A stretch of DNA of 64,000 bases. It comes from Escherichia coli. GTDB taxonomy: Bacteria > Pseudomonadota > Gammaproteobacteria > Enterobacterales > Enterobacteriaceae. Numbering within the stretch: position 1 is the first letter of the stretch; every line of letters begins with the position of its first letter. The translations under genes were made by a program, and so were the position numbers. The stretch lies in the NCBI RefSeq assembly GCF_024298765.1, contig NZ_CP101210.1, one strand, 5' to 3'. The notes under the pieces are model-generated. The model saw only the letters and a list, made by a program, of their open reading frames with translations, did no database searches and had not been told where the DNA came from. This document shows positions 45,013-45,036 of the stretch, one piece after another.

Positions 45013-45036
45013 GAGTGCTGAATGTATTCAGCACTC
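45013..45036. promoter_or_regulatory. near-perfect 11-bp-arm palindrome between RidA and symporter genes
   Basis: gagtgctgaat gt attcagcactc; operator or RNA hairpin. Confidence 0.4.

Follow-up and report, generated by a model that had tools for sequence, protein, structure and literature searches.

What is the role of a perfect inverted repeat that sits between an enzyme gene and a transporter gene in a small catabolic islet of Escherichia coli, and does it act as DNA or as RNA? The repeat occupies positions 45013-45036 of the window, the stretch of 64,000 nucleotides which was analysed as a whole, and reads GAGTGCTGAAT-GT-ATTCAGCACTC on the plus strand. The original prediction had described a 24-bp palindrome placed between the RidA and symporter genes, and both statements agree with our analysis: the 11-nt arms are 100% complementary and enclose a 2-nt centre, and the ORF coordinates put the palindrome between the RidA (OngD-like) reading frame (45070-45465, minus strand, stop codon at 45070-45072) and the sodium:solute symporter reading frame (43498-44967, minus strand). 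Read along the minus strand, the RidA stop codon is followed by 33 nt, the palindrome, another 45 nt and the ATG of the symporter.

Within the window no other site resembles the palindrome at up to three mismatches, with 0 expected from shuffled sequences. The 64 kb hold four perfect inverted repeats with arms of at least 11 nt and short loops, the palindrome among them, and block shuffles of the same 64 kb gave 0. Other perfect inverted repeats, with 10-13-nt arms, were located at 12675-12702, 21814-21838, 36951-36981 and 40738-40767; several of these four are flanked by A/T-runs and are probably ordinary, partly bidirectional terminators. A search for the motif elsewhere in the genome, which had been proposed as a check, was carried out over 193 E. 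coli genomes and returned one place per genome, always the RidA-symporter locus. A dispersed repeat of the REP/BIME, ERIC or MITE type was ruled out, as the palindrome is single-copy in each E. coli genome that carries it. Furthermore, it is identical in six E. coli alleles despite their differing flanks; about five spacer sites are polymorphic among these alleles and none of them falls into the palindrome. One of the polymorphic sites, a C/T at window position 45047, lies a short way ahead of the hairpin in the mRNA and there replaces AAAAAAACAG by AAAAAAATAG.

The surrounding islet comprises five genes (window 42583-48332) and lies between tsr and btsT. Of 5426 complete E. coli genomes, 194 carry it, and many of these come from poultry and livestock. 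Besides RidA and the symporter it encodes an rpiR-family regulator (42583-43488, plus strand), a D-aminoacylase-like amidohydrolase, i.e. a deacetylase (45469-46920, minus strand), and a PLP deaminase (47112-48332, plus strand). The islet is a horizontally acquired ong-type cluster for the catabolism of oxidised amino sugars, with counterparts of OngB, OngD/RidA, OngIT, OngC and OngR/RpiR. In Pseudoalteromonas prydzensis ACAM 620 the ong cluster serves the catabolism of the oxidised chitin monomer (GlcNAc1A): OngB deacetylates N-acetyl-glucosaminic acid and OngC deaminates the product to KDG, while OngD is a RidA protein, OngIT an SSS symporter and OngR an RpiR-type repressor (PMC9537276). With the proteins of a Pseudoalteromonas cluster of ong organisation, the E. 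coli deacetylase shares 54% identity and the deaminase 45%. In ACAM 620, ongCRBD, whose last gene encodes RidA, is transcribed separately from the unit ongIT-kdgK-ongA; OngR represses the first of these two units and not the second, and the symporter unit is induced by the substrate outside the control of OngR (PMC9537276). The location of the palindrome within the islet operon is accordingly to be taken as an assumption, since the sole studied homologue has a unit boundary at the RidA/symporter junction.

The neighbourhood of the two genes showed some further features. The rpiR and symporter reading frames converge with 9 bp between them (43488-43498). For the symporter transcript there is a single terminator-like hairpin, CGCAGGCGA-TCTT-TCGCCTGCG followed by CTTTATTT (43403-43424, minus strand); it lies inside the 3' coding end of rpiR, and on the plus strand no terminator for rpiR was found ahead of the palindrome region. 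In Klebsiella and most other enterobacteria (e.g. K. oxytoca L008, 6482-7943) two extra genes are present between the symporter gene and rpiR, which encode a 290-aa protein without NCBIfam match and a homologue of 2-dehydro-3-deoxy-6-phosphogalactonate aldolase; they are absent from E. coli, Escherichia sp. E1V33 and several other enterobacterial loci (e.g. Shimwellia, Izhakiella). The possibility that the Klebsiella cluster encodes a LacI-family regulator was rejected on the basis of these two extra genes. Their distribution hints that the enterobacterial substrate may be a sugar acid of galacto configuration and that in E. coli the islet depends on the chromosomal dgo genes. Outside the islet, lgoT (L-galactonate transporter, window 39369-40730) is split into two ORFs (39369-40325 and 40341-40730) and is annotated as a pseudogene with an internal stop in RefSeq, in a genome identical to the window over 43400-47100.

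On the mRNA (minus) strand the palindrome takes the form of a stem-loop, GAGUGCUGAA-UACA-UUCAGCACUC (45013-45036). Only 10 bp of the 11+2+11 DNA palindrome can pair in RNA, leaving a 4-nt loop, and the resulting hairpin, which contains 5 G·C pairs, has a calculated energy of -14.2 kcal/mol. A possible extended helix (45010-45044, minus strand) is formed when CCG (45042-45044) pairs with CGG (45010-45012) across a 5-nt bulge; this 3-bp extension was seen in the MFE folds of both strands, gains about 1.7 kcal/mol and brings the energy to -15.9 kcal/mol, the value also obtained for the best local hairpin at locus L007. The extension is not conserved in Klebsiella or Serratia. Upstream, the stem is preceded by an A/U-rich single-stranded leader, UAAAUUUAAGAAUUAAAAAAACAGACCGCAAUU, which extends from the RidA stop codon to the stem (45037-45069, minus strand) and includes an A7 run; it is A/U-rich in all orthologues, and its sequence is poorly kept (11/39 columns invariant). 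Downstream follows a variable pyrimidine-rich stretch (44986-45012, minus strand; 3/26 columns invariant), in which we found neither conserved promoter hexamers nor a U-run directly after the stem, and then the ribosome-binding block of the symporter, ACUGGCAGGAUGUGAAUUAUG (44965-44985, minus strand, with the SD sequence AGGA at 44976-44979 and the AUG at 44965-44967), of which 20/22 columns are invariant across orthologues.

The lack of a T-run behind the palindrome on the coding strand, remarked on in the original prediction, was confirmed: the stem is followed there by CGGGAACUCUUACAUU without a U-run, and the 8 nt past the 3-bp-extended stem contain 3 U on the sense strand. The terminator scan called nothing at the palindrome on either strand. 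With the G+C stem-loop present and no U-tract beginning 0-2 nt behind the stem in the mRNA, the hairpin is not a canonical Rho-independent terminator, and the earlier judgement that it is no simple terminator on the coding strand holds. An RNase III processing site was rejected as well, because such sites need about 20 bp (two helical turns) and the helix, with 10 bp or 13 bp including the bulged extension, is too short. No covariance model of Rfam 15 matched at E <= 1 across 42400-48700.

In order to follow the element through evolution, the symporter protein was used as query with one genome per species, yielding 80 loci, and in 80/80 of them the gene order deacetylase-RidA-symporter is retained. 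The palindrome itself is present in five of these loci (Escherichia sp., K. oxytoca, K. grimontii, K. pneumoniae and Serratia sp. AKBS12). With the conserved ribosome-binding block as anchor, which was picked to be independent of the hairpin, 22 metagenome contigs were recovered; most of them carry the palindrome, and one additional hairpin variant (L108) was obtained. A plasmid search for further variants returned matches to RidA coding sequence only. The orthologues in Klebsiella and Serratia keep the 10-bp stem and the 4-nt loop, and all six sequence variants fold on the mRNA strand with energies from -13.5 to -15.7 kcal/mol. For the two Serratia-type variants the fold of the antisense strand is weaker, at -8.5 and -11.4 kcal/mol, because wobble pairs become A·C mismatches on the opposite strand.

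A comparison of Escherichia, three Klebsiella species and Serratia revealed that 16/20 stem columns are invariant versus 14/65 flank columns (Fisher p = 4e-6). The loop varies freely among the variants (UACA, UUCA, AUAA, AUUA), with one of its four columns invariant. Three stem pairs are variable: pair 4:21 changes from U4:A21 to C4:G21 with U4·G21 as intermediate, i.e. in a compensatory manner, and the changes from G1:C24 to G1·U24 and from A9:U16 to G9·U16 yield pairs on the mRNA strand only. In 10 distinct orthologous sequences, 100/100 stem cells pair on the mRNA strand. RNAalifold, applied to the orthologous spacers, returned the palindrome hairpin as the only consensus structure, and the symporter ribosome-binding site is the only other conserved block in the spacer. 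The covariation is thin, as there is one fully compensatory pair and 67/500 column shuffles do equally well, and for the three sense-compatible wobble events the strand choice has p ~0.125. The 16/20 invariant stem positions also represent more sequence conservation than structure alone needs.

At the remaining loci the spacers are unrelated and range from 6 to 450 nt in length. Where a spacer measures at least 100 nt, its strongest local hairpin is nearly always stable, and over 41 non-redundant spacers the best native hairpin has a mean energy of -17.7 kcal/mol compared with -12.6 kcal/mol for dinucleotide shuffles; the native hairpin is better than all five shuffles in 29/41 spacers, where about 7 are expected. 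A U-rich tail after the best hairpin occurs at 2 loci only. Evidently, the RidA-symporter junction holds a stable hairpin without U-tract in most lineages, and the sequences of these hairpins are mutually unrelated. For example, a Pseudoalteromonas relative of the studied strain carries CGUUCAGCAGC-AAAG-GCUGUUGAACG 15 nt past the RidA stop, with a sense-strand G·U pair and again without U-tract. A family-wide strand test on the 41 non-redundant spacers gave no bias (more stable on the sense strand in 16, on the antisense strand in 21), so that the strand argument rests on the six variants of the palindrome hairpin.

From these data we favour, with a probability of roughly one half, the reading that the palindrome is a cis-acting mRNA stem-loop, either shielding a 3' end or delimiting a transcript. 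The message of the deacetylase and RidA genes, with or without the symporter gene, would carry the hairpin in its 100-nt spacer, where it would mark the end of the enzyme segment and cause little termination by itself, efficient self-termination not being expected without a U-tract. A 3' end downstream could arise by Rho-dependent termination, by weak termination or by endonuclease cleavage in the A/U-rich flanks and could then be trimmed back to the hairpin, which would stop 3'-to-5' exonucleases. The enzyme segment would thereby become more stable and more abundant than the symporter segment, and the latter would be made only by read-through or from a start of its own. That the site is transcribed, that exonucleases are blocked and that the effect is stabilising in this direction is what we infer from the features given above. 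As in intercistronic stabilisers, a stable stem-loop (-14.2 to -15.9 kcal/mol) lies just past a cistron, 33 nt after the RidA stop. The suggestion in the original prediction that the palindrome may be an RNA stability or processing hairpin is the one which best fits the compensatory and sense-only G·U changes, the drifting loop and flanks and the unrelated U-tract-less hairpins elsewhere. A leaky terminator, for which the partial U-rich tails in Serratia and Klebsiella may be quoted, and the 5'-UTR hairpin discussed below are variants that sequence data do not tell apart from the favoured reading.

The main rival explanation places the function at the DNA level. The central 16 bp of the palindrome, GCTGAAT-GT-ATTCAGC (45017-45032, no strand assigned), resemble an operator of Cra (FruR, LacI family), and a dimer of Cra or a Cra-like protein might occupy GCTGAAT-NN-ATTCAGC, so that transcription would be repressed or stopped before it enters the symporter gene. 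Compared with the published Cra/FruR motif gcTGAAtCGaTTCAgc (PMC5888115; for the fruB operators see PMC10760178), the core agrees at 14/16 positions, its half-sites GCTGAAT/ATTCAGC are identical and correctly spaced, and it is the best match to gcTGAAtCGaTTCAgc in the 64-kb window (2 mismatches, the next best having 3). The half-site words TGAAW/WTTCA occur at the published spacing, but the central C-G step does not: both mismatches fall on the central CG, which is missing from the palindrome in all orthologues, the centre being AC/GT in E. coli and undergoing transversions among the orthologues (AC, TC, TA, TT). The in vivo motif derived by ChIP-exo has the central CG among its few positions above 1 bit and the SELEX consensus RSTGAAWCSNTHHW has a fixed C8 (central step C8/S9).

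In favour of a Cra site, the GCTGAA/TTCAGC arms are the most conserved part of the element (11/12 columns invariant). Against it, complementarity and conservation reach 4 bp past the core on each side; of these 8 columns 5/8 are invariant versus 14/65 flank columns (p = 0.025), and the other three covary or wobble, which is not required by Cra. Moreover, the Serratia change from TGAA to TGGA keeps a G·U pair and damages the Cra half-site. The degenerate 14-nt Cra consensus has 20 matches in the window at 1 mismatch, so that a match to it is uninformative, none of the other ~75 homologous spacers has a Cra-like box, no promoter beside the site was found by consensus scan, and the resemblance was noticed post hoc. 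On the side of regulation, the symporter unit of ACAM 620 is induced by its substrate yet not under OngR (PMC9537276), so that another regulator is needed. The acquired transporter would, if Cra filled this place, be tied to the carbon-flux signal of the host independently of the RpiR-type repressor of the islet. The domain of Cra is central carbon metabolism, which the pathway feeds with keto-deoxy sugar acids. Taken together, we regard the operator as unlikely, if the most serious competitor of the stem-loop; the element may serve as operator and hairpin at once, given that an operator of this form, once transcribed, folds into a hairpin. Other regulators were compared by eye and discarded, namely KdgR (box with wrong spacing), the ARG box TGAAT-N4-ATTCA (wrong spacing) and LexA and CRP (no match).

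Somewhat less probable again is a hairpin in the 5'-UTR of a separate symporter transcript, which would start from a weak promoter located where RidA ends or the spacer begins, in A/T-rich sequence, and which the hairpin, lying close to the 5' end, would protect from 5'-end-dependent RNase E decay. The structural evidence on the sense strand is the same for this arrangement as for the favoured stem-loop, and the Pseudoalteromonas symporter indeed heads its own transcription unit (PMC9537276). The difficulty is the promoter. The A/T-rich upstream flank contains -10-like hexamers, TATAAT in Serratia and TATAAA in Klebsiella, but such hexamers arise by chance in A/T-rich DNA, they are not conserved in E. 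coli (TTAAAAAAAC), no acceptable -35 was seen on inspection and the consensus promoter scan gave no promoter-like site in the spacer (44968-45069).

The palindrome could also have no function of its own, being a relic of an older terminator or operator which hitchhikes with a symporter allele and is too young to have decayed. All carriers, i.e. the five species representatives and the metagenome contigs, belong to one symporter lineage (88-100% identity). Two Klebsiella lineages (e.g. L008 vs L030) have a RidA that is ~94-95% identical to that of E. coli and a symporter that is either ~90% or ~75% identical; the constant RidA identity together with two symporter identities indicates that the RidA-symporter spacer is a recombination junction between two symporter alleles. 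Against a relic, the flanks have diverged almost past alignment whereas the stem has not (the p = 4e-6 given above), with all four stem changes preserving the pairing. We thus hold a mere relic to be quite improbable.

In the second symporter lineage, which is ~75% identical (L019, L023, L027-L033, L035, L037, L038, L069 and L079), another inverted repeat, rich in A/T, stands just before the ribosome-binding site, ~25-50 nt from the ATG. The two arms of this repeat covary from species to species (ATAATATTC/GAATATTAT, ATAATGTC/GACATTAT, AATAACC/GGTTATT), the left arm overlaps a -10-like YATAAT, and one portion of the repeat, ATTCAGCGGTTCG, seems to be homologous to the right arm ATTCAGCGCTTCG of the Klebsiella version of the palindrome.

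A terminator on the opposite strand is very improbable, in spite of a feature absent from the original prediction: a T7 run on the plus strand (45049-45055, equal to the A7 on the mRNA strand) 12 nt past the stem. The plus strand reads CCG-stem-loop-stem-AAUUG-CGG-UCUGUUUUUUU, and hairpin, extension and T7 together could end read-through from rpiR, which converges on the symporter gene at the distance of 9 bp given above without a plus-strand terminator between, or a cis-antisense RNA over the symporter ribosome-binding site. Yet the T-run lies 12 nt past the perfect stem and 4 nt past a weak bulged extension, the terminator scan is silent, and the combination of T-run and extension is absent in Klebsiella and Serratia, where the hairpin is kept. 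The wobble changes favour the strand opposite to the antisense reading, and no plus-strand promoter-like site was found in 44800-45000.

At ~30 loci (Halomonadaceae, Zobellella, some enterobacteria) an A-run lies directly upstream of the spacer hairpin, so that the opposite strand at these loci resembles a canonical terminator pointing from the symporter to RidA; of the two strands, the antisense one has the higher fold stability in Halomonadaceae and Zobellella. One may imagine, at equally long odds, that ong-type clusters share an orientation-specific stem-loop, with an A-run upstream and no U-run, which passes sense transcription and terminates transcription from the symporter side. A cis-antisense RNA that covers the symporter ribosome-binding site could have its 3' end set by such an element, and the transporter would thereby be controlled apart from the enzymes; the E. 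coli form of the element would be the plus-strand hairpin at 45010-45044 with the T7 run at 45049-45055. In the Halomonadaceae (L052-L086), ~100 nt upstream of the symporter start, and in Zobellella (L041, L044) we observed a hairpin with strong covariation, GCGCCGYACCCCGGCAAGGGTRCGGCGC, whose GGCAA loop is conserved. An A8 run lies directly before this hairpin and no U-run after it, and its antisense strand has the form of a canonical terminator. A second hairpin of Halomonadaceae and Zobellella, CCGGCCGCGGCAACGGCCGG, is closer to the start codon and has GGCAA in its loop, too.

The least credible reading, put forward in the original prediction, is an operator for the RpiR/MurR-family (OngR-like) regulator. 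In its favour, the palindrome has the length of an operator and is intergenic in an islet that encodes an RpiR-family repressor, but the reading is not supported: the half-site search in the islet promoter regions gave no recurrence in the divergent deacetylase/deaminase promoter (46921-47111) or upstream of rpiR (42459-42582), its window-wide matches are at chance (18 vs 16.8 expected), the blocks of the divergent promoter kept across genera (ACAGTGGAAAACTACGCAA, CTTGTAAATGGTTAACTT, GAATAAAAGTATCA) are unrelated to the palindrome, most clusters with an orthologous regulator lack the palindrome sequence, and OngR does not control the symporter unit, ongIT, in the studied system (PMC9537276). 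A word shared by the two E. coli promoter regions, GTGGAAAAC, was discounted, as it is not kept upstream of rpiR in other species. In the divergent promoter (46921-47111; L007-L039 equivalents) three blocks, GAATAAAAGTATCA, TTTTGCGTAGTTTTCCACTGTTTT and CTTGTAAATGGTTAACTT, are conserved across genera and are candidate OngR operators or promoter elements. The TTGTAA half of CTTGTAAATGGTTAACTT resembles HexR-type (RpiR-family) boxes.

What follows for the islet is modest with regard to the palindrome and somewhat larger with regard to its surroundings. The palindrome is an ordinary kind of element; intercistronic hairpins that tune enzyme-to-transporter ratios are a long-known device, and by itself it matters little. 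It marks, however, a likely transcript boundary in an uncharacterised islet of E. coli and Klebsiella. The more useful by-product is the link between the islet and the ong pathway, which provides a concrete hypothesis on what the carrier strains eat. The Cra-like core offers a testable case of whether or not an acquired transporter gene has been wired into a global carbon regulator of the host. Finally, hairpins that lack a U-tract recur at the junction across the family, often with an A-run ahead of them, a minor regularity for which we have no explanation.

In comparison with the ongD-ongIT junction of P. prydzensis, the E. coli islet has the same set of deacetylase, RidA, SSS symporter, PLP deaminase and RpiR-type repressor, and a hairpin without U-tract is found at the junction in a Pseudoalteromonas relative. 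The hairpin sequences are unrelated, though, the gene order of the islet differs, with rpiR convergent and the deaminase divergent, and genes for a kinase, a hexosaminidase and a TonB receptor are missing from it. With Rho-independent terminators the palindrome shares the 10-bp stem, the 5 G·C pairs and the position at a gene end, but it has no U-tract on the mRNA strand and the T-run of the other strand is displaced by 12 nt. It is 8 bp longer than a Cra operator and, unlike REP elements, single-copy. Stem-loops that act as intercistronic stabilisers in polycistronic operons are surveyed in PMC5927463 and PMC4423207. The closest likeness of the palindrome is to this class. The malE-malF and Rhodobacter puf hairpins are its classic examples, in which RNA is selectively processed and stabilised. 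Although the stem sequence of the palindrome is more conserved than a purely structural element requires, it resembles them in being a hairpin without U-tract past the upstream cistron and before a membrane-protein gene, and in that structure rather than sequence appears to be kept across relatives.
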